Shown here piece after piece: positions 23,006 through 34,143 of a DNA stretch of 64,000 bases; position 1 is the first letter of the stretch; each line of letters begins with the position of its first letter. The stretch spans positions 249,652-313,651 of the forward strand of contig JADJPQ010000009.1 of assembly GCA_016713175.1 (NCBI GenBank), read 5' to 3'. A program made the translations under genes and the position numbers. Source of the DNA: Planctomycetota bacterium (GTDB lineage Bacteria; Planctomycetota; UBA1135; UBA2386). Under the pieces are notes generated by a model that worked only from the letters and a program-made list of their open reading frames with translations, was not told the origin of the DNA and searched no databases.

Positions 23006-23009
<4 letters not shown>
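22967..23009 (+). repeat. Three tandem 14-15 bp repeats GG(A/C)ACCTGA(G/A)GTGG
   Basis: Units at 22967-22980, 22982-22995 and 22996-23009, spanning the dnaN stop and the next start codon. Confidence 0.85.
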
Positions 23010-25802
<2,793 letters not shown>

Positions 25803-25838
25803 CGACAACCCGCGGCCCGATCCGGCCACGCCTGCCCG

Positions 25839-27311
25839 ATGCATCGCATCCGCTACCTCGTCGGCTTGTTGACGCTGGCTCTGGCCGTGGGCGGCACCTG
25901 GGTGCTGCTGTGCTGGTTGCGGGCCGGCGAAGAACGGCCCGGTCTGCAGCTGCGGGTCGAGTTCCGCGATGCGCGCGGGTTGCGTGGCGGCGCCGATGTC
26001 CGTTATCGCGGGGTCACGGTCGGCACGGTGCGATCGGTGCAGATCGGCGAGGACGGCCACAAGGCGGTCGCCAACCTGGTGCTGGATCCGATCGGCGCGC
26101 GCCAGGCCGCGGTCAACAGCGCGTTCTGGATCGTGTCGCCGCGCTTTGCCGGGTTGACTGGCGGTGCGAGCGGCCTCGATACGCTGGTGCGCGACACCTA
26201 CGTCGCGTTCGTGACCCAGGACCCGCGTGGCACCGAACTGGTGCACGGCAGCCTGATCGCCGGCAGCGAACGACCGCCGGCGAACGTCGAACCGGAGAGC
26301 CTCGAGCCGATCGAGCATGGCGACCTGCTGATGAGCGTGCTGGTGCCGGAGAACCACGGCCTGAAGCCGGGGTCGGCGGTGATCTTCCGCGGCACCCAGA
26401 CCGGCGACGTGCGCGCGGTCGAACTCGCCAGCGATGGCAGCCATGTGCAGGTCCGGCTGCGCGTCGCGCGCCGCTTCCGTGCCACGGTCACCGACAAGTC
26501 GGTGTTCTGGATCGCCCGGCCTCACCTGTCCGGGGCGCTGTTCTCCGGCTTCACCGTCAGCGATGTCGGCTCGCTGTTGTCGCCGTTCGTCAACTACTGG
26601 ACGGAACCTGGGCAGGGTCTGCCCGCCGAAGATGGCCTGCGTGTCGCTGCGGTGGCGTCGCGGCCGGAGGTGCGGATCCCGGAAGTTCCGGCGGCGGCGT
26701 TGCAATCGGCGCAGCCGGCGCCGGCAGTCCGTGGTGACCCCCTGGTCCTGGTGCGGGTCATCTACGCCGCCCAGGAGGAAGACACCTTCAGCGCCAACGA
26801 CGCGATCCGCCGCGAGGGCACCGGAGTGTTGTTCCTCGACGCCTCCGGGCGTCCGGTGGTGGTGACGGCGCGCAGCCTGGTCGATGGCGCCTGGACCGAG
26901 GAGGACACGTTCGGCGGCGATCCCGAGATCATCGACGAACACATCAAGGTCGTCGTGCCGCAAGGACCGGTGCTGCGCGCCGGCCGGGTGTGGACCGCGC
27001 CGGGCGACCGCGACCTCGCAGCCTTGGTGCTGGAAGACGCGCCGCCCGATCTGCGCAGCACACCGGCGAATCTGCTCGACTTCGCGATCGAACCGACGGC
27101 CGGCCACGTGCATGCGCTGCAGCCGGATGGCCTGGCAGCACCGGCGCAGGAGGCCACAGCACCGCCAGCGGACGTGGCGGCCGTTCGCGGCGCCGCGCTG
27201 GTGCACGATGGCCGCGTTGGCGCGATCTGTGGTCAGGCCAGTGGCCGTGACGCGACTCCGGCCTGGGCACCGCTGGCGTTGCTGCCGGTCGACCTACGCC
27301 CGGGGAACTGA
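25839..27311 (+). CDS. MlaD/MCE family protein: N-terminal TM, two MCE domains, C-terminal trypsin-like domain lacking catalytic residues
   Basis: FRDARGLRGGADVRYRGVTVGTV and GLKPGSAVIFRGTQTGDV; FWI motif in both repeats; C-terminus GTGV..VVTARSL..DLAALVL..GRVGAI. Confidence 0.8.
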   Translation: MHRIRYLVGLLTLALAVGGTWVLLCWLRAGEERPGLQLRVEFRDARGLRGGADVRYRGVTVGTVRSVQIGEDGHKAVANLVLDPIGARQAAVNSAFWIVSPRFAGLTGGASGLDTLVRDTYVAFVTQDPRGTELVHGSLIAGSERPPANVEPESLEPIEHGDLLMSVLVPENHGLKPGSAVIFRGTQTGDVRAVELASDGSHVQVRLRVARRFRATVTDKSVFWIARPHLSGALFSGFTVSDVGSLLSPFVNYWTEPGQGLPAEDGLRVAAVASRPEVRIPEVPAAALQSAQPAPAVRGDPLVLVRVIYAAQEEDTFSANDAIRREGTGVLFLDASGRPVVVTARSLVDGAWTEEDTFGGDPEIIDEHIKVVVPQGPVLRAGRVWTAPGDRDLAALVLEDAPPDLRSTPANLLDFAIEPTAGHVHALQPDGLAAPAQEATAPPADVAAVRGAALVHDGRVGAICGQASGRDATPAWAPLALLPVDLRPGN

Positions 27312-27312
27312 C

Positions 27313-28845
27313 GTGACGGCTGCCGTGGTGCCGACCGGGTCCGGCTTGCCGCCGTTCTGGGCCTTCGAGCAGTTCTCGCTCGCGCATCGCCGGGCGGACA
27401 GCGAGGAAGTGCTGCTGGCGAACGTCCCGCTGTCGGTGCCGGCCGGCGGGTTCTTCCTGTTCGTCGGTCCAAGTGGCGGCGGCAAGTCGTCGCTGCTGCG
27501 CCTGTGCGCCGGTCTGGTCGAAGCGCGCGAGCCGGCACCACGATTGGGTGGCGGATTCCGCTGCCTCGGCCTCGATCTGTGTGCCGACTATCCGGCAGAG
27601 CTGCACGGCAGGGTCGCTGCGATCCTGCAGGACGAAGGGTTGCTCGACGAACTGTCGCCGCGCCAGAACGTCGAACTGGCGCTGCGCGCCGCCCAACGTT
27701 CGCCGAAGTTGGCACCCGGCCTGCTGGCCCAGGTCGGCCTCGAGCATGCACCGGAACGGGTGGCCCAATTGTCCGGCGGCATGCGCAAACGCCTGGCTGT
27801 CGCCCGGGCGCTCGCCGCGGACCCTGAAGTGATGCTATGTGACGAACCGACCGCCGGCCTCGATCCCGAGGCCGCGCGTCAGGTGGCGGCGCTGCTCCAG
27901 CAGAGCCACGACGGCGGTCGCGGTCGGACCACGGTGATCATCACGCACGATCAGGCGGCGTTCGATGGGCTCGTCGACGGCATCCTGGTGCTCGATCGCG
28001 GCAATCGCACATTGCGCCTGGAGCCGCCGACGTTCCGCTGGCAGCCGGACGGCGGACGGGCTCGCGCACCGGAGGCACAGGAAGGCGAGGGGCCGGCACT
28101 GCATGGCCTGCGCCGGCAACTGTTGCGGCTGGCGTCGGTGCTGGAGACCGTCGTCGAGTCCCTGGTGCGGCTGCCACCGGTGGAACCGGGTCAGGTGGCC
28201 AGGACGACCCTGCGTCTGCTGACCGAGTCGATCGCGTTCATCGCCGTCGCCGGCGGTGTGATCGGCGGCATGGCGACGTTCTTCGCGCTGCGCAACAACC
28301 CGATCCAGGGTGGCTTCGAGACGGCGCTGCTGACCGGCACCGGCAAGGTGCTGACTGCGGTACTGGTGCCGCTGCTCAGTGGGTTCTTCTTCACCGCGCG
28401 GATCGCCGCCGGCGCCGCGGCCAGGTTGGGCACGATGAAGCGCAACAACCAGATTGCCGCGCTGCAGATGATGGGCATCCGCCCGGCGGACTACCTGCTG
28501 ACGCCGCTGATCTGGGGCATGGTGCTGGCCATGCCATTGGTGACCCTGGCCGGTGTCGTCGCGTCCGCGTTCGCCGGGCTGTTCGCGGCCCAGGGAGTGT
28601 CGGGGATCACGACAATCGGCTGGGCCACGGCGTGGTTCCAGGCCGTCGACCTGCGTGATGTCGAGATCGTCGCGCTGAAGTCGGCGCTGTCGGGCTATCT
28701 GGTCGCAGTGACCACGTGGCATCTGGCGACCGGTCCCAAGCGTTCCGGCGGCGAAGTCGGGGAAGCGGTCAATGCCGCGATCGTGATCGGCATGGCGGCG
28801 GTGCTGGCGGTGCACGCCGGGTTGACGTTCCTGGTCTACGCCTGA
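27313..28845 (+). CDS. MlaF-like ABC ATPase fused to an MlaE-like permease
   Basis: GPSGGGKS, LSGGMRKR, CDEPTAGLDP, ITHD, then TM region with RLGTMKRNNQIAALQMMGIRPADYL (MlaE EAA-like) and GEAVNAAIV, all in one frame. Confidence 0.85.
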   Translation: MTAAVVPTGSGLPPFWAFEQFSLAHRRADSEEVLLANVPLSVPAGGFFLFVGPSGGGKSSLLRLCAGLVEAREPAPRLGGGFRCLGLDLCADYPAELHGRVAAILQDEGLLDELSPRQNVELALRAAQRSPKLAPGLLAQVGLEHAPERVAQLSGGMRKRLAVARALAADPEVMLCDEPTAGLDPEAARQVAALLQQSHDGGRGRTTVIITHDQAAFDGLVDGILVLDRGNRTLRLEPPTFRWQPDGGRARAPEAQEGEGPALHGLRRQLLRLASVLETVVESLVRLPPVEPGQVARTTLRLLTESIAFIAVAGGVIGGMATFFALRNNPIQGGFETALLTGTGKVLTAVLVPLLSGFFFTARIAAGAAARLGTMKRNNQIAALQMMGIRPADYLLTPLIWGMVLAMPLVTLAGVVASAFAGLFAAQGVSGITTIGWATAWFQAVDLRDVEIVALKSALSGYLVAVTTWHLATGPKRSGGEVGEAVNAAIVIGMAAVLAVHAGLTFLVYA

Positions 28846-28885
28846 GGGCGCTGCTGCGGCGGCATCGGTGGTTCGTTCAAGCCGG

Positions 28886-29566
28886 ATGCAGCGTCGAACC
28901 GATGATCGAGCCGTGAAGGGCCTCGACAAGCTGACTTCGGTGCGCCTCGCGGAAGTCCTCACCCAGAAGGGTGTGGTGCCGGCCGAGGTGATCACCGATG
29001 CGCTGTACGCGCAGGACAAGAACGGCGAACCCTTCGTGCAGGTGCTGATCGGCGGCGGTCACATCACCGAGTGGGATCTCGCCAAGCTGGTCACCGAGAA
29101 CTTCCAGCTGCCGTTCCTGATGGCCGGCAACTACCAGATCTCGGAAGCCGCGCGCGACCGGCTGCCCAAGGAGCTGCTGTTCCGCCACATGCTGGTGCCG
29201 CTGGATGCGATCGACAACGTCGTCTGCGTGTCGATGCCGGTGCTGACGCCGTTCGAAGTGCTGATGAAGATCCAGAAGGAGCACAATTGCGATGTGTTCC
29301 CCTATGTCGGCCTGATCACCGAGAACAAGAAGGTCTTGTCCGACCTGTTCAAGGACTTCCCGCAGTGGTTGGAGGACGACCAGAAGCGACGTGAGGCGGG
29401 TGCGGCGAAGCGGGCGACCCAGAAGGACAGCAAGGACAAGGTCGGCGACTGGATGAGCGTGTTCGACGCCGGCGACCAGGCGATCAAGGACCGACCCTCC
29501 GTGCGCAAGCCGGTGACGCCCCCACCGACGTCCAGCACGGCCCTGCCGCCGAAGAAGCCGGGCTGA
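28886..29566 (+). CDS. Stand-alone MshEN/T2SSE-N domain protein
   Basis: RLAEVLTQKGVV...ITDALYAQ, then FVQVLI..GHITEWDLAKLV; no ATPase domain; start ATG 28886 or GTG 28913. Confidence 0.65.
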   Translation: MQRRTDDRAVKGLDKLTSVRLAEVLTQKGVVPAEVITDALYAQDKNGEPFVQVLIGGGHITEWDLAKLVTENFQLPFLMAGNYQISEAARDRLPKELLFRHMLVPLDAIDNVVCVSMPVLTPFEVLMKIQKEHNCDVFPYVGLITENKKVLSDLFKDFPQWLEDDQKRREAGAAKRATQKDSKDKVGDWMSVFDAGDQAIKDRPSVRKPVTPPPTSSTALPPKKPG

Positions 29567-30044: not shown

Positions 30045-31637
<1,593 letters not shown>

Positions 31638-31670
31638 GCGACGTCGTCCGTCGCGGCGCGACCGGTTCGG

Positions 31671-32198
31671 TCAGTGTCGCTTCAGACCGACCGACAGCCC
31701 CAGCAGCGCGAGGCCGGCCGCCGGCAGGCTGCCGGTCATGAAGCGCTGGAAGTCGCCCCACTCGTGCTCGACCGCGGCGGCGAAGCGATCCCACACCGTC
31801 TGGATCGCGTTCCAATCGACGTTCACCAGCCCGAAGTACGAAAGCAGGAACGTCATGAACAGCCAGAAGCCGAGCGCGATGCTGGCGACCTTCACCATCG
31901 TGCGGATGAAACTGCCGATGCAGAAGCCGGCGAGGAACGAGAAGCCGAGGCGGAAGACCCCTTTGCTGGCCGGTTCGGGCGCCGCACTGGTCGATCCGCC
32001 GCCGAGGCCAGGCACGAAGGCGGCGCCGGCACCGCTCTCGCCGGTCGGCGGGTGCGCGCCGTGCGATGCGGACAACACACCGCCTGCGGCGGCGGCAAGC
32101 GTCGCACCGGCGACGAGGGCCTTCTTCCAGCCCGGCATGGCCTTCAACCAGCCGGAGAACGAGCGACTCGGGTCGGGTGAGGTCTTCGGATCGGCCAT
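31671..32198 (-). CDS. FUN14 family membrane protein
   Basis: GFSFLAGFCIGSFIR..VK...LLSYFGLVNVDW pattern; start chosen at ATG 32198. Confidence 0.7.
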   Translation of the reverse strand: MADPKTSPDPSRSFSGWLKAMPGWKKALVAGATLAAAAGGVLSASHGAHPPTGESGAGAAFVPGLGGGSTSAAPEPASKGVFRLGFSFLAGFCIGSFIRTMVKVASIALGFWLFMTFLLSYFGLVNVDWNAIQTVWDRFAAAVEHEWGDFQRFMTGSLPAAGLALLGLSVGLKRH

Positions 32199-32345
32199 GG
32201 GTGCGCGAAGAGGGGCGCAGAGACTAACCGCTGCAACCGCTGCGTGCGGTGCGGCGAACGGCACAAAACGCCTGAATCTGCTTGAGGCACCCAGGTAGGC
32301 CCGCTTTCTTCCGACATACCTCACTTTTTCGGAGTCCAGAAACGA

Positions 32346-33371
32346 ATGCGCATCCCTCTCGCAGTCCTGCTGGCTGCAACCGTCGCCTCGGTTGCCAGCG
32401 CGCAGGACAAGGTCACGTTGTCCAACGGTGACGTGGTGACCGGCGCCATCAAGACGATGGCCGATGGCAAGTTGACGATCTCGTCGCCGCTGGTCGGCGA
32501 CATCACCATCCCGCTGGCCAACATCGCCAATCTGTCGACCGGCGCCCCGGTCGACCTGCTCAACACCGACGGTGAACGGTTCAAGCGCCGCATCGCCGGT
32601 ATCGAAGGCGGTGACCTGAAGCTCGAAGGCGACATCCCGAGCCTGGCACTGTCGCGGCTGGGCCAGATCAATCCCCCCGCGAAGGTGCCGGAGAGCTGGA
32701 CCGGATCACTGACCGCCGGTGGTTGGATCACCAGTGGCAACACCGAGCGTCGCGCCATCGGCCTCGCGTTCGAGGCTGTACGCCGATCCGAGATCGACCG
32801 TATCACCGCCGATGCGTCGTGGGACTACTCCGAGGACAAGGCGACCGGTGACTGGGTGCTGAACCAGCGCCGCGCCGGCGGTGGCCTCAAGTACGACTAC
32901 TTCCTGACCAAGAAGTGGTACCTGATCGCGACCGCGCGCGTGCTCGGCGACACGCTGGCGAACATCAACCTCCGGTTCACCGGCGGTTTCGGCCTCGGCT
33001 ACCAGTGGGTCGAGAACGACACGACCAACTTCTCGACGGAAGCCGGTCTGTCGTACTTCAACGAGAACTACCGCCGGGATCCGGTCCTCAACGTTGCCGA
33101 TCCGAGCGTCGACTACCTCGCGGCTCGGGTGGCCTACAAATTGAGCCACAAGCTCAGCGACACGACGAAGCTGCTGCACGGCACCGAGGCGTTCCCGAGT
33201 CTGGAAGACGCCAACGACGTCTACTTCCAGATGAAGACCGAAGTGCAGACCAACTTGACCGCGAGCATGATCGCTTCGCTGGGCTGGGTCTGGGACTACG
33301 ACAACACGCCGGCGACGGGTCGCGATCGTTCCGACCATCGCGTGTTGCTGGCGGTCGGCTGGACGTTCTGA
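32346..33371 (+). CDS. DUF481/YdiY-like outer-membrane beta-barrel protein
   Basis: Signal peptide; L.NGD.VTG N-domain; SGNTE; alternating beta strands ending VGWTF. Confidence 0.8.
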   Translation: MRIPLAVLLAATVASVASAQDKVTLSNGDVVTGAIKTMADGKLTISSPLVGDITIPLANIANLSTGAPVDLLNTDGERFKRRIAGIEGGDLKLEGDIPSLALSRLGQINPPAKVPESWTGSLTAGGWITSGNTERRAIGLAFEAVRRSEIDRITADASWDYSEDKATGDWVLNQRRAGGGLKYDYFLTKKWYLIATARVLGDTLANINLRFTGGFGLGYQWVENDTTNFSTEAGLSYFNENYRRDPVLNVADPSVDYLAARVAYKLSHKLSDTTKLLHGTEAFPSLEDANDVYFQMKTEVQTNLTASMIASLGWVWDYDNTPATGRDRSDHRVLLAVGWTF

Positions 33372-33387
33372 TCGAACGGTTTCCGCG

Positions 33388-34143
33388 TCAGCGCCGCGGT
33401 GGACGCGGCGCGCACACCGACGCCGGCAGTGGCGCCGGTCGGACCACCAACCGCGGCAGCGGCATCAGGCCGAGCTGATCCAACAGTTCGCCGATCGCGC
33501 GGTGACCTGCCGCGGTGTGGCGGATCAGCAACAAGCCATTCTGATCGTCGATTGTTGCCGCGTCGGCCCACGCATCGGGCGTGACGTTCTGCTTGATCAA
33601 GCGCTCGACCAGTTCGGCGGTGAAGCCGCTGACCGTCGTGCCCGAGTCCTCCTCCGGCGGGAACAGCACCTCGCCGCCGTCCTCGCCGAGACCGAGCTTC
33701 GGCCCCGGGAAGTTCTTCAACCGGACAAACTGCGATCGCAGGTTGTAGGCCACCAGATACGTCAGGGGTCGGACCTCGTCCTTGCCGACCAGGAACACGA
33801 CGCCGTCGCGCCAGACGAAGCGCAGGCCGGTGCGCGCCTGGGTCGCCGCCATCACCGACCACGGCGTGGTCTTGCCGAGCGCGAGGTCGAACGCTGGCGT
33901 CGTCGCCGCGTCGCCCTTGCCGGCGAACAGGAACGTCAGTTTGTCGCCGGTCATCGCCGACAGCTGCCGACACAGTTCCTTCGCTGTGATCGCTTCGATC
34001 GTGAAGTCGACGCGCGTGCGCTTCAGCAGCGCCGTGGCCCGATCGCGGGCGCGTTGATCCTCGCGTTTCTCGACCACCAGAACCTCGTCTTGCGCCGCGA
34101 CGGCAGCGGCCAGCCAGAGTCCCAAGAGGCATCGTGCGAACAT
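33388..34143 (-). CDS. Secreted hypothetical protein, possibly secretin-N/STN-like domains
   Basis: Signal peptide MFARCLLGLWLAAAVAAQ; IKQNVTPDAW and LLIRHT..HRAIGELLDQL segments. Confidence 0.6.
   Translation of the reverse strand: MFARCLLGLWLAAAVAAQDEVLVVEKREDQRARDRATALLKRTRVDFTIEAITAKELCRQLSAMTGDKLTFLFAGKGDAATTPAFDLALGKTTPWSVMAATQARTGLRFVWRDGVVFLVGKDEVRPLTYLVAYNLRSQFVRLKNFPGPKLGLGEDGGEVLFPPEEDSGTTVSGFTAELVERLIKQNVTPDAWADAATIDDQNGLLLIRHTAAGHRAIGELLDQLGLMPLPRLVVRPAPLPASVCAPRPPRR

Follow-up and report, generated by a model that had tools for sequence, protein, structure and literature searches.

The window, that is, the whole analysed stretch of 64,000 nucleotides, carries on its forward strand a gene (27313–28845) encoding an ABC ATPase fused to an MlaE-type permease in one protein of 510 amino acids. 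It starts with GTG at 27313 and ends with the stop codon at 28843–28845. The same-frame open reading frame spans 26884–28845, and the part of it that does not overlap the upstream gene begins with this GTG; alternative starts are the GTG codons at 27325 and 27328. Pfam places ABC_tran and MlaE in the same 510-residue chain, and the ATPase motifs are invariant, so the in-frame run of an intact nucleotide-binding domain (NBD) into a full MlaE permease, proposed in the initial annotation, holds. The AF2 monomer has pLDDT 91.1 and pTM 0.85, and in it the NBD sits under the transmembrane domain (TMD) of its own chain. The whole-chain structural neighbours found by Foldseek are NBD-first half-transporters, ABCG25, ABCG2, ABCG5/8 and MacB, although the rmsd is high (12–30 Å).

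The NBD occupies residues ~16–237 (27358–28023), as delimited by Pfam ABC_tran, the invariant motifs and Foldseek. The ABC_tran match covers residues 35–181 and scores 75 bits against a cut-off of 25. Walker A (G52–K58, 27466–27489), the Q-loop (Q106, 27628–27630), the LSGGM signature (residues 153–157, 27769–27783), Walker B with the catalytic glutamate (D177–E178, 27832–27846) and the H-loop (H212, 27946–27948) are unchanged across 35 orthologues and 41 fused proteins with identity down to 23%. The set of ABC motifs is complete, but orthology to MlaF, the name given earlier to this half, cannot be demonstrated by bit scores, NCBIfam or Foldseek. In the search of the genome with this domain, the best non-self hit is one MlaF (82 bits), with unrelated NBDs at 79 bits and the remaining two MlaF copies ranking fifth and tenth. 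The top NCBIfam models are FtsE and DevA, both with scores far below their cut-offs, and the Foldseek TMt values are 0.84 for YbbA, 0.82 for the MacB NBD and 0.69–0.74 for MlaF. Compared with the ABC ATPases encoded in this genome, the fused NBD is roughly equidistant from all of them.

A linker of about 23 residues (~238–260, 28024–28092), defined by the alignment and AF2, leads to the MlaE-type transmembrane domain (residues 261–510, 28093–28842), which is supported by Pfam, phmmer and AF2. The MlaE match (PF02405, residues 302–506) scores 103.6 bits against a cut-off of 22.5 and covers profile positions 8–211 of 212. The predicted structure, with pLDDT mostly above 90, has an interfacial or elbow helix (261–285), five transmembrane helices (TM1 292–327, TM2 334–372, TM3 391–430, TM4 447–472, TM5 479–509), a coupling helix between TM2 and TM3 (375–387) and a periplasmic helix (434–441). 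The phmmer search of the PDB with the permease sequence retrieves no families other than MlaE/YrbE: 7ch8_G from P. aeruginosa (1.9e-10), 6z5u_A from A. baumannii (2.2e-9), 6xbd_G from E. coli (3.1e-7) and the mycobacterial YrbE 8fed_J (7.8e-7).

The gene immediately upstream (25839–27311, forward strand) encodes an MCE protein of 490 amino acids, described here by Pfam, NCBIfam, AF2 and Foldseek. It consists of an N-terminal transmembrane helix (residues 2–31, 25842–25931), two MCE domains (residues 36–143, 25944–26267, and residues 163–270, 26325–26648) and an HtrA/DegS-like beta domain (residues 304–478, 26748–27272). Pfam yields two MlaD stretches and NCBIfam a partial PqiB-like match, and by structure residues ~36–270 are matched best by LetB and PqiB. 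The pLDDT of the model is 87.6, exceeding 90 in the HtrA-like domain. The latter matches the chymotrypsin-like double beta-barrel fold, with the protease domains of DegS, DegP and HtrA1 retrieved at E ~3e-5 and TMt 0.5–0.56 over ~200 columns; Pfam Trypsin has no match in this protein. In 35 orthologues no invariant or near-invariant His or Ser is found between residues 300 and 490, and the only triad-type residue kept in the domain is D392, the Asp of 'DLAAL'. Judged by these residues, the HtrA-like domain is catalytically dead. The C-terminal tail LPxDLRP is conserved.

The two genes meet at TGA-c-GTG (27309–27315), the stop codon of the MCE gene (27309–27311) being separated from the GTG by one base pair, which suggests translational coupling. 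Relative to the first aligned codon of the fused gene, the MCE stop of orthologues is located between 9 nt inside and ~100 nt upstream, and a 37%-identical relative has an ATGA-type overlap. The MCE gene is situated directly upstream of the fused gene in all loci of the family (~55 species), and partners with the same C-terminal domain adjoin 37%- and 33%-identical fused proteins in other genomic contexts. Thus a complete MCE ABC transporter is encoded in two reading frames with a 1-bp spacer, as initially proposed, and the trypsin-like domain of the MCE protein is there as well.

The spacer between gyrB, which ends at 25802, and the MCE gene is 36 bp long (25803–25838) and contains no terminator-like hairpin. 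Hence the suggested co-transcription with gyrB is possible, but this adjacency is conserved within one family only: the order dnaN–dciA–gyrB–MCE–fused gene is restricted to it, and more distant cassettes are found beside unrelated genes. Among relatives the spacer varies from ~10 to 580 nt. On the same grounds, no functional tie to gyrB or to the replication origin is supported.

Other Mla genes of the genome and spread of the fusion

The Pfam scans confirmed that MlaA, MlaB and MlaC are absent at the locus. No STAS (MlaB-like) domain was found in either gene of the cassette or in three neighbouring reading frames, and neither MlaA (PF04333) nor MlaC (PF05494) has a match anywhere in the genome, the E. 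coli and Caulobacter controls being positive. This is not special to this genome, since the lack of MlaA, MlaB and MlaC is normal outside Proteobacteria-like phyla (PMC10665443).

With the fused gene, the genome has four MlaE genes, of which the remaining three are split and form mlaE–mlaF–mlaD operons, two of them with a STAS–MlaE fusion. The gene order also differs: it is E, F, D in the split operons, while in the cassette D precedes F–E. The fused MlaE domain (~104 bits) scores far below the split paralogues (215–241 bits), and hence its substrate or mechanism may have diverged. These observations modify the earlier proposal of an envelope lipid-trafficking system: it stands as regards an MCE-type transporter, but this transporter is an extra, divergent paralogue beside three canonical split MlaEFD operons. 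The retention of these ordinary operons also limits the importance of the cassette.

The fused architecture is shared by at least 1,184 protein clusters (E ≤ 1e-30) and by about 40 clusters at 50% identity. Of the 301 Planctomycetota genomes sampled, 25 (~8%) have it. Both Pfam domains are present in all 41 tested diverse proteins of ~500 amino acids. Among the relatives retrieved, all that are named belong to the Planctomycetota. A contig labelled 'Luminiphilus' carries the fused gene in full planctomycete synteny and is probably mis-binned. The planctomycete envelope is atypical and poorly understood, and the cassette is a candidate lineage-specific envelope system of this phylum.

In the tree of permease domains, for which the split sample comprised the three MlaE genes of this genome and the top 30 canonical MlaE genes of the phylum by score, fused and split proteins are parted by a single branch (SH-aLRT 99). 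This separation indicates that the fusion was probably one old event. A recent fusion of a neighbouring mlaF–mlaE pair was considered and rejected, as the operon order is different and the fused permeases form one deep group. In a second clade of fused proteins the partner is a protein of ~420 amino acids with no detectable MCE domain, and its profile–profile comparison with MCE was not significant. Therefore the permease family is not strictly tied to recognisable MCE partners.

Both halves of the fused protein are already named by annotation pipelines, and the fusion is a domain rearrangement inside a known class, visible in automated annotation. At the same time, a full-text literature search, with subscription journals outside its coverage, yielded no published description of an MlaF–MlaE fusion. 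In the literature consulted, ATPase and permease are separate subunits in the characterised systems of E. coli, A. baumannii, P. aeruginosa, V. parvula and Brucella and in mycobacterial Mce, and so the statement that characterised Mla/Mce systems use separate genes is borne out. The suggestion that the system is undescribed agrees with the lack of a paper on it, but the fusion is not rare: it is common in part of the phylum, and given the cluster counts, the share of genomes and the pipeline labels, it is in part already catalogued as such.

Proposed mechanism and cargo

MCE/Mla transporters are central to lipid movement in double-membraned bacteria, mycobacteria and chloroplasts. The product of the fused gene is likely to work as a half-transporter, its ABC ATPase being N-terminal and its five-helix MlaE-type permease C-terminal, and to serve as an (FE)2 engine for the MCE partner. 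Following MlaFEDB, PqiB and LetB, two fused chains would pair to form the (NBD–TMD)2 engine. The upstream protein would be the periplasmic part, probably a hexamer, with its N-terminal helix anchored beside the permease. Its two stacked MCE rings would form a hydrophobic tunnel, and a distal ring of dead HtrA-like domains may attach to some component farther out in the envelope or act as a gate for it. Binding and hydrolysis of ATP in the fused NBDs would move hydrophobic cargo between the inner membrane and the tunnel, the cargo most likely being a glycerophospholipid or another envelope lipid. By a rough estimate, two MCE rings and a domain of ~200 residues may be too short to span the planctomycete periplasm; no outer-membrane partner is evident at the locus. 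For expression and imaging, no MCE transporter would be simpler than such a fused homodimeric engine with a single partner, and the fusion fixes the F:E stoichiometry at 1:1.

The nature of the cargo is the point at which a different reading competes. The protein could be an ABCG/MacB-like exporter of a non-phospholipid, hydrophobic or amphipathic cargo, such as lipoproteins, hopanoids or sterol-like lipids, lipopeptides or hydrophobic peptides, with the dead HtrA domain as a module binding the cargo or a partner. The whole-chain structural matches listed above point in this direction, as does the proximity of the NBD to YbbA and MacB by structure and to FtsE and DevA by sequence models. So do the strong divergence of the fused MlaE domain from its canonical paralogues and the three canonical operons, which presumably cover the phospholipid traffic; further, HtrA-type domains bind peptides. 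On the other hand, the permease sequence matches MlaE/YrbE and nothing else in the PDB, and the tightly coupled partner carries MCE domains, which, to our knowledge, handle lipids or sterols in all characterised cases. The likeness to ABCG and MacB is expected, since their TMD folds are distant relatives of the MlaE fold (PMC7790496), and the match is aided by the shared NBD-first order, with the high rmsd noted above. On balance, an exporter of this kind is unlikely, and a lipid-handling MCE engine is preferred.

A broader interpretation, in itself unlikely, is that the cassette represents a distinct, self-sufficient class of MCE machines made up of an NBD–MlaE half-transporter and a TM–MCE–MCE–pseudoHtrA protein, in which the ring of pseudoHtrA domains is an outward adaptor and the NBD-first order is a living intermediate between the MlaE-type importers and the MacB/ABCG exporter lineages. 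In that case the ligand of the pseudoHtrA ring would be peptidoglycan, a protein of the outer membrane, or cargo in the form of a hydrophobic peptide or lipoprotein, and the ring would take over the job done elsewhere by MlaC/MlaA, PqiC or the beta-barrel of long MlaD proteins.

Integrity of the single chain

The half-transporter model assumes that the two halves act as one polypeptide. Within the protein, conservation and model confidence are lowest in the linker (AF2 pLDDT 68–74), which would fit internal initiation or proteolysis in the linker yielding ordinary separate F and E subunits from one reading frame. However, the alignment contains no conserved Met or Val start at the beginning of the permease, the common frame is kept over a large divergence, which would be needless if the halves were translated independently, and in the AF2 model the TMD rests on the NBD of the same chain. 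We consider the production of two proteins very improbable.

The other way to obtain a spurious fusion, the joining of two neighbours in this genome only, by a frameshift from sequencing or assembly or by loss of a stop codon, has next to no probability, for although the source is a metagenome-assembled draft (31 contigs, 90% complete) and such errors do occur in these assemblies, the fused frame is open in every complete locus among ~55 related species with 53–73% identity and recurs in more than 1,000 clusters, the linker varies among species in length and sequence with all indels in frame, and contigs of two independent metagenome assemblies from other activated-sludge studies cover 27664–28544, across the junction, with no gaps. 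Moreover, the fused gene cannot derive from a stop lost in a split operon of the kind present in this genome, as the order there is E–F and not F–E. The possibility that homologs are split genes, raised in the initial annotation together with a check for frameshifts and stops, is contradicted by the same loci and clusters. At the sequence level, the fusion is therefore confirmed as real and not an assembly error. An RNA contig matches exactly, in the NBD part only.

Comparison with known systems

The cassette shares with MlaFEDB (E. coli 6XBD, A. baumannii 6Z5U, P. aeruginosa 7CH8) the MlaE-type permease, the ABC ATPase with complete motifs and the adjacent gene for an MCE protein anchored by an N-terminal helix. 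Unlike MlaFEDB, it has F and E in one chain, the NBD preceding the TMD; MlaB is missing from the locus, and MlaA and MlaC from the whole genome. MlaD carries a single MCE domain with a short helix, whereas the partner here has two MCE domains and the dead HtrA-like domain. The free C-terminal extension of MlaF, which contacts the neighbouring MlaF and MlaB in a 'handshake' (PMC7790496, PMC7367683), is replaced here by the linker. In E. coli this handshake depends on MlaB, and with its replacement by the linker, regulation is probably unlike that of the E. coli Mla system. The fusion removes both the MlaB-type regulation and the handshake, and so provides a test of how essential the two are.

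The minimal MlaEFD systems of Veillonella parvula and other non-proteobacterial diderms (PMC10665443) likewise have the E, F and D functions only, with no MlaA, MlaB or MlaC, and a long MlaD-type protein proposed to reach outward alone. V. parvula, however, encodes E and F in two genes, and its long MlaD has helices and an outer-membrane beta-barrel at the end, while here the MCE protein is extended by another MCE ring and the trypsin-like domain. No beta-barrel is reported for MlaD of the PVC group (PMC10665443). A dead HtrA-like cap would be a new kind of distal module on an MCE tunnel.

Stacked MCE domains in one chain are also found in PqiB and LetB (5UVN, 6V0C, 9N8W). Their membrane partners PqiA and LetA are not ABC proteins, in contrast to the ABC NBD–MlaE engine of the cassette, which moreover has only two MCE domains and lacks the C-terminal coiled-coil needle. 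The Mla–Pqi chimeric system Mpc of Brucella abortus (PMC12436622) is similar to the cassette in that its ABC engine is of the Mla type and its MCE protein is extended, and in that the N-terminus of MlaE is fused to a cytoplasmic partner. In MpcE, however, the fused module is a regulator-like STAS domain, and the ATPase MpcF is separate. Mpc further includes a lipoprotein resembling PqiC, of which no equivalent was seen here. The two STAS–MlaE fusions elsewhere in this genome resemble MpcE.

With the ABCG and MacB half-transporters the fused protein has in common a single chain with the NBD N-terminal to the TMD. ABCG proteins have six TM helices with re-entrant helices, and MacB has four and a large periplasmic domain; the protein described here, with five TM helices, lacks a large domain in the periplasm, belongs to MlaE by sequence and is paired with an MCE partner. 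The fused family offers a sequence-level bridge for the proposed kinship of the MlaE fold with MacB/ABCG. Finally, the mycobacterial Mce1 system (8FED) has the related YrbE permease, and its Mce proteins match the first MCE domain of the partner. Mce1 combines a heterodimeric permease YrbE1A/B, a separate ATPase MceG and six Mce proteins forming a heterohexameric needle, whereas everything in the cassette is presumably homomeric and fused.

The fused ATPase-permease gene

The reading frame that carries the fused gene is open over 26884-28845, its first 430 nt overlapping the upstream gene in a different frame. The start was placed at GTG 27313, the first start codon past the upstream stop (alternatives are GTG 27325 and 27328), and hence the gene (27313-28845, plus strand) has a 510-aa product. 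Within this one chain Pfam recognizes an ABC_tran domain (residues 35-181, 75 bits) followed by MlaE (residues 302-506; 104 bits, cut-off 22.5), bearing out the single-chain ATPase-MlaE fusion proposed in the initial annotation. In the alignment of 35 orthologues the Walker A residues G52, S54, G55, G57 and K58, the Q-loop Q106, the signature LSGGM (153-157), the Walker B D177 with the catalytic Glu E178, and the H-loop H212 are all invariant. Since the same residues are invariant across 41 fused proteins, with identity as low as 23%, the ATPase looks catalytically competent.

Scanning a single genome for each species yielded 269 relatives. In the 59 closest loci (L005-L063), all from Planctomycetota MAGs and 53-73% identical, one alignment spans both halves. 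Every locus free of contig-end truncation keeps one open frame across ATPase and permease, and the length of the linker varies among species by whole codons only. The junction is crossed by independently assembled contigs of two other activated-sludge studies (27724-28544 and 27664-28289), with substitutions and zero gaps; a metatranscriptome contig is identical to 27687-27940. Thus the check for a frameshift or stop suggested earlier found none in homologs or independent contigs, and these observations rule out an error, leaving practically no room for an artefact. That the single ORF yields two polypeptides is very improbable.

Predicted structure and the MCE partner

AF2 gives a confident monomer model for the fused protein (pLDDT 91.1, pTM 0.85). 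It consists of the NBD (residues 16-237), a linker (238-260, pLDDT about 70), an interfacial, or elbow, helix (261-285), TM1 (292-327), TM2 (334-372), a coupling helix (375-387), TM3 (391-430), a short periplasmic helix (434-441), TM4 (447-472) and TM5 (479-509). The predicted helix layout of the TMD is that described for MlaE in 6XBD (PMC7790496), and the only TMD sequence matches in the PDB are MlaE of P. aeruginosa, A. baumannii and E. coli, and mycobacterial YrbE. The best Foldseek matches of the whole chain are ABCG25, ABCG2, ABCG5/8 and MacB, which, like the fused protein, are NBD-first half-transporters; hence the fusion recreates their domain order inside the MCE branch. A distant kinship of the ABCG and MacB TMD folds with MlaE has already been recorded (PMC7790496). 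For the NBD alone, structural similarity is higher with YbbA and the MacB NBD (TMt 0.82-0.84) and lower with MlaF (0.69-0.74). In sequence, its distance to every ABC ATPase of the genome is roughly the same (27-38% identity), so "MlaF" is here a functional label rather than a demonstrated orthology.

In the model of the MCE partner (pLDDT 87.6), a TM helix (residues 2-31) is followed by two MCE beta-barrels, at 36-143 and 163-270, and by a beta-rich domain at 304-478 whose pLDDT exceeds 90. In Foldseek the MCE part resembles LetB and PqiB, and the C-terminal part the protease domains of DegS, DegP and HtrA1 (E about 3e-5, TMt 0.5-0.56). As no His or Ser of the C-terminal domain is conserved among the 35 orthologues, this domain, judging by the alignment, cannot be a canonical serine protease. 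The extreme C-terminus is a nearly invariant LPxDLRP tail (window 27285-27308, residues ~483-490), in which P483, R487 and P488 do not vary among 35 species. The tail also aligns, as LP..LRPG, with the partner from a relative that has a 33%-identical fused protein, and might serve for docking.

If the complex resembles MlaFEDB, a pair of fused chains would make up an (NBD-TMD)2 core, with six partner chains as a double MCE ring over it, enclosing a central hydrophobic channel. A distal ring built from the dead HtrA-like domains would dock to or gate something farther out. Regulation would have to depart from the E. coli Mla scheme, given that the MlaF C-terminus is tied up in the fusion and MlaB is absent at the locus. 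A membrane lipid is the likeliest cargo, a different hydrophobic substance being unlikely. The main value of the system is that of a minimal MCE machine with fixed stoichiometry and an unusual putative pseudo-protease cap.

The locus and other Mla genes of the genome

The gene order is dnaN - dciA - gyrB - MCE - fused gene - 232-aa gene - tatA (opposite strand) - ABC-F, and it is kept in almost all loci of the window's family. The small ORF between dnaN and gyrB (23006-23317, plus strand) encodes a homologue of the helicase loader DciA (PF05258, 45 bits), which fits an origin-proximal dnaN-dciA-gyrB cluster. The 232-aa gene (28868-29566, plus strand) lies 22 nt 3' of the fused gene, a position conserved throughout the family, and does not adjoin the cassette in distant relatives. 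It has a sub-threshold match (22.3 bits against the cut-off of 23.1) to MshEN, a T2SS-E N-terminal domain of the c-di-GMP-binding type.

The MCE gene (25839-27311) ends 1 bp ahead of the fused-gene GTG. Co-transcription with gyrB, considered probable initially, is possible, since no terminator-like hairpin was found in the 36-bp spacer between the gyrB end and the MCE-gene ATG or after the fused gene; on the other hand, this spacer varies from ~10 to ~580 nt among relatives. In relatives with fused proteins 37% and 33% identical, the two-gene cassette sits among unrelated genes, and the alignment of its partner with the window's MCE protein still extends through the C-terminal domain. The conserved functional unit is the pair of genes, to which the gyrB neighbourhood does not belong; the adjacency and retention of the pair support the proposed two-ORF MCE transporter.

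The genome has four MlaE genes, and the fused system exists beside ordinary split operons, which contain the other three in the order mlaE, mlaF, mlaD. In two of these, an MlaB-like STAS domain is fused to the MlaE N-terminus (G000:C2:~31400-33550, or L085:6034-7548, and contig G000:C26, L087:6212-7354, both on the minus strand), as in Brucella MpcE (PMC12436622); the third MlaE is plain. Hence a single genome combines two STAS-fused, one ATPase-fused and one unfused MlaE N-terminus. The split MlaE score 215-241 bits in Pfam versus 104 bits for the fused protein. Of the absence of mlaA, mlaB and mlaC noted initially, that of MlaA and MlaC extends to the whole genome, as expected outside Proteobacteria-like phyla (PMC10665443); that of MlaB holds at the locus.

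Distribution and origin of the fusion

A word-indexed search yielded 1,522 relatives, the best 120 of which all have both Pfam domains and a length of about 500 aa, and a profile built from diverse fused members retrieved 1,184 clusters at E<=1e-30. Among 50%-identity representatives searched exhaustively, some 40 of the top 150 have ~500 aa and match end to end, and ABC_tran and MlaE are both present in all 41 fused representatives tested. In an even sample of the phylum, full-length fused matches occur in 25 of 301 genomes, spread over at least ten families; the window's own family has a fused match in four of five genomes, and the sister families of the same order have a full-length one in none of 12. 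All relatives bearing an organism name are Planctomycetota. Annotation pipelines have already catalogued the architecture and name both halves: the label is [quoted passage not shown] at JGI, and "ABC transporter permease" or "ATP-binding cassette domain-containing protein" at NCBI. Given these counts and labels, the supposed rarity of the fusion did not hold. Full-text search found no paper describing the fused architecture, and the words "fused" and "fusion" are absent from the phylogenomic Mla survey (PMC10665443) and the MlaFEDB structure paper (PMC7790496). Thus the fusion is an established, machine-annotated, unstudied Planctomycetota subfamily.

At least one canonical MlaE is present in each of 101 sampled genomes of the phylum. 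When permease domains were placed in a maximum-likelihood tree, the 41 fused ones and the 33 split ones, the latter drawn from the best-scoring MlaE genes of this phylum only, parted at one branch (SH-aLRT 99). The tree implies a single change of state, which fits one old fusion event. Simple loss of a stop codon is disfavoured, since the cassette has the order D, then F-E, unlike the split operons with E, F, D.

A second deep NBD-MlaE clade is 28-32% identical to the window's fused protein and has a different upstream partner of ~420 aa (L088:4752-6020, L121:3755-5008, L122:3721-4971). The three partners are homologous to one another (21-25% identity), with a TM helix, a short stretch of beta structure and a long helical part. 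They have no Pfam match, and hhalign comparison with the MCE partner is not significant; they may represent a new type of partner or a very divergent MCE protein.

Finally, one contig binned as a gammaproteobacterium (L060, JBERSB010000007.1, labelled as a Luminiphilus sp. MAG) shows the complete dnaN-dciA-gyrB-MCE-FE order of the planctomycete loci, with proteins 58-74% identical, and is probably a mis-binned planctomycete contig.
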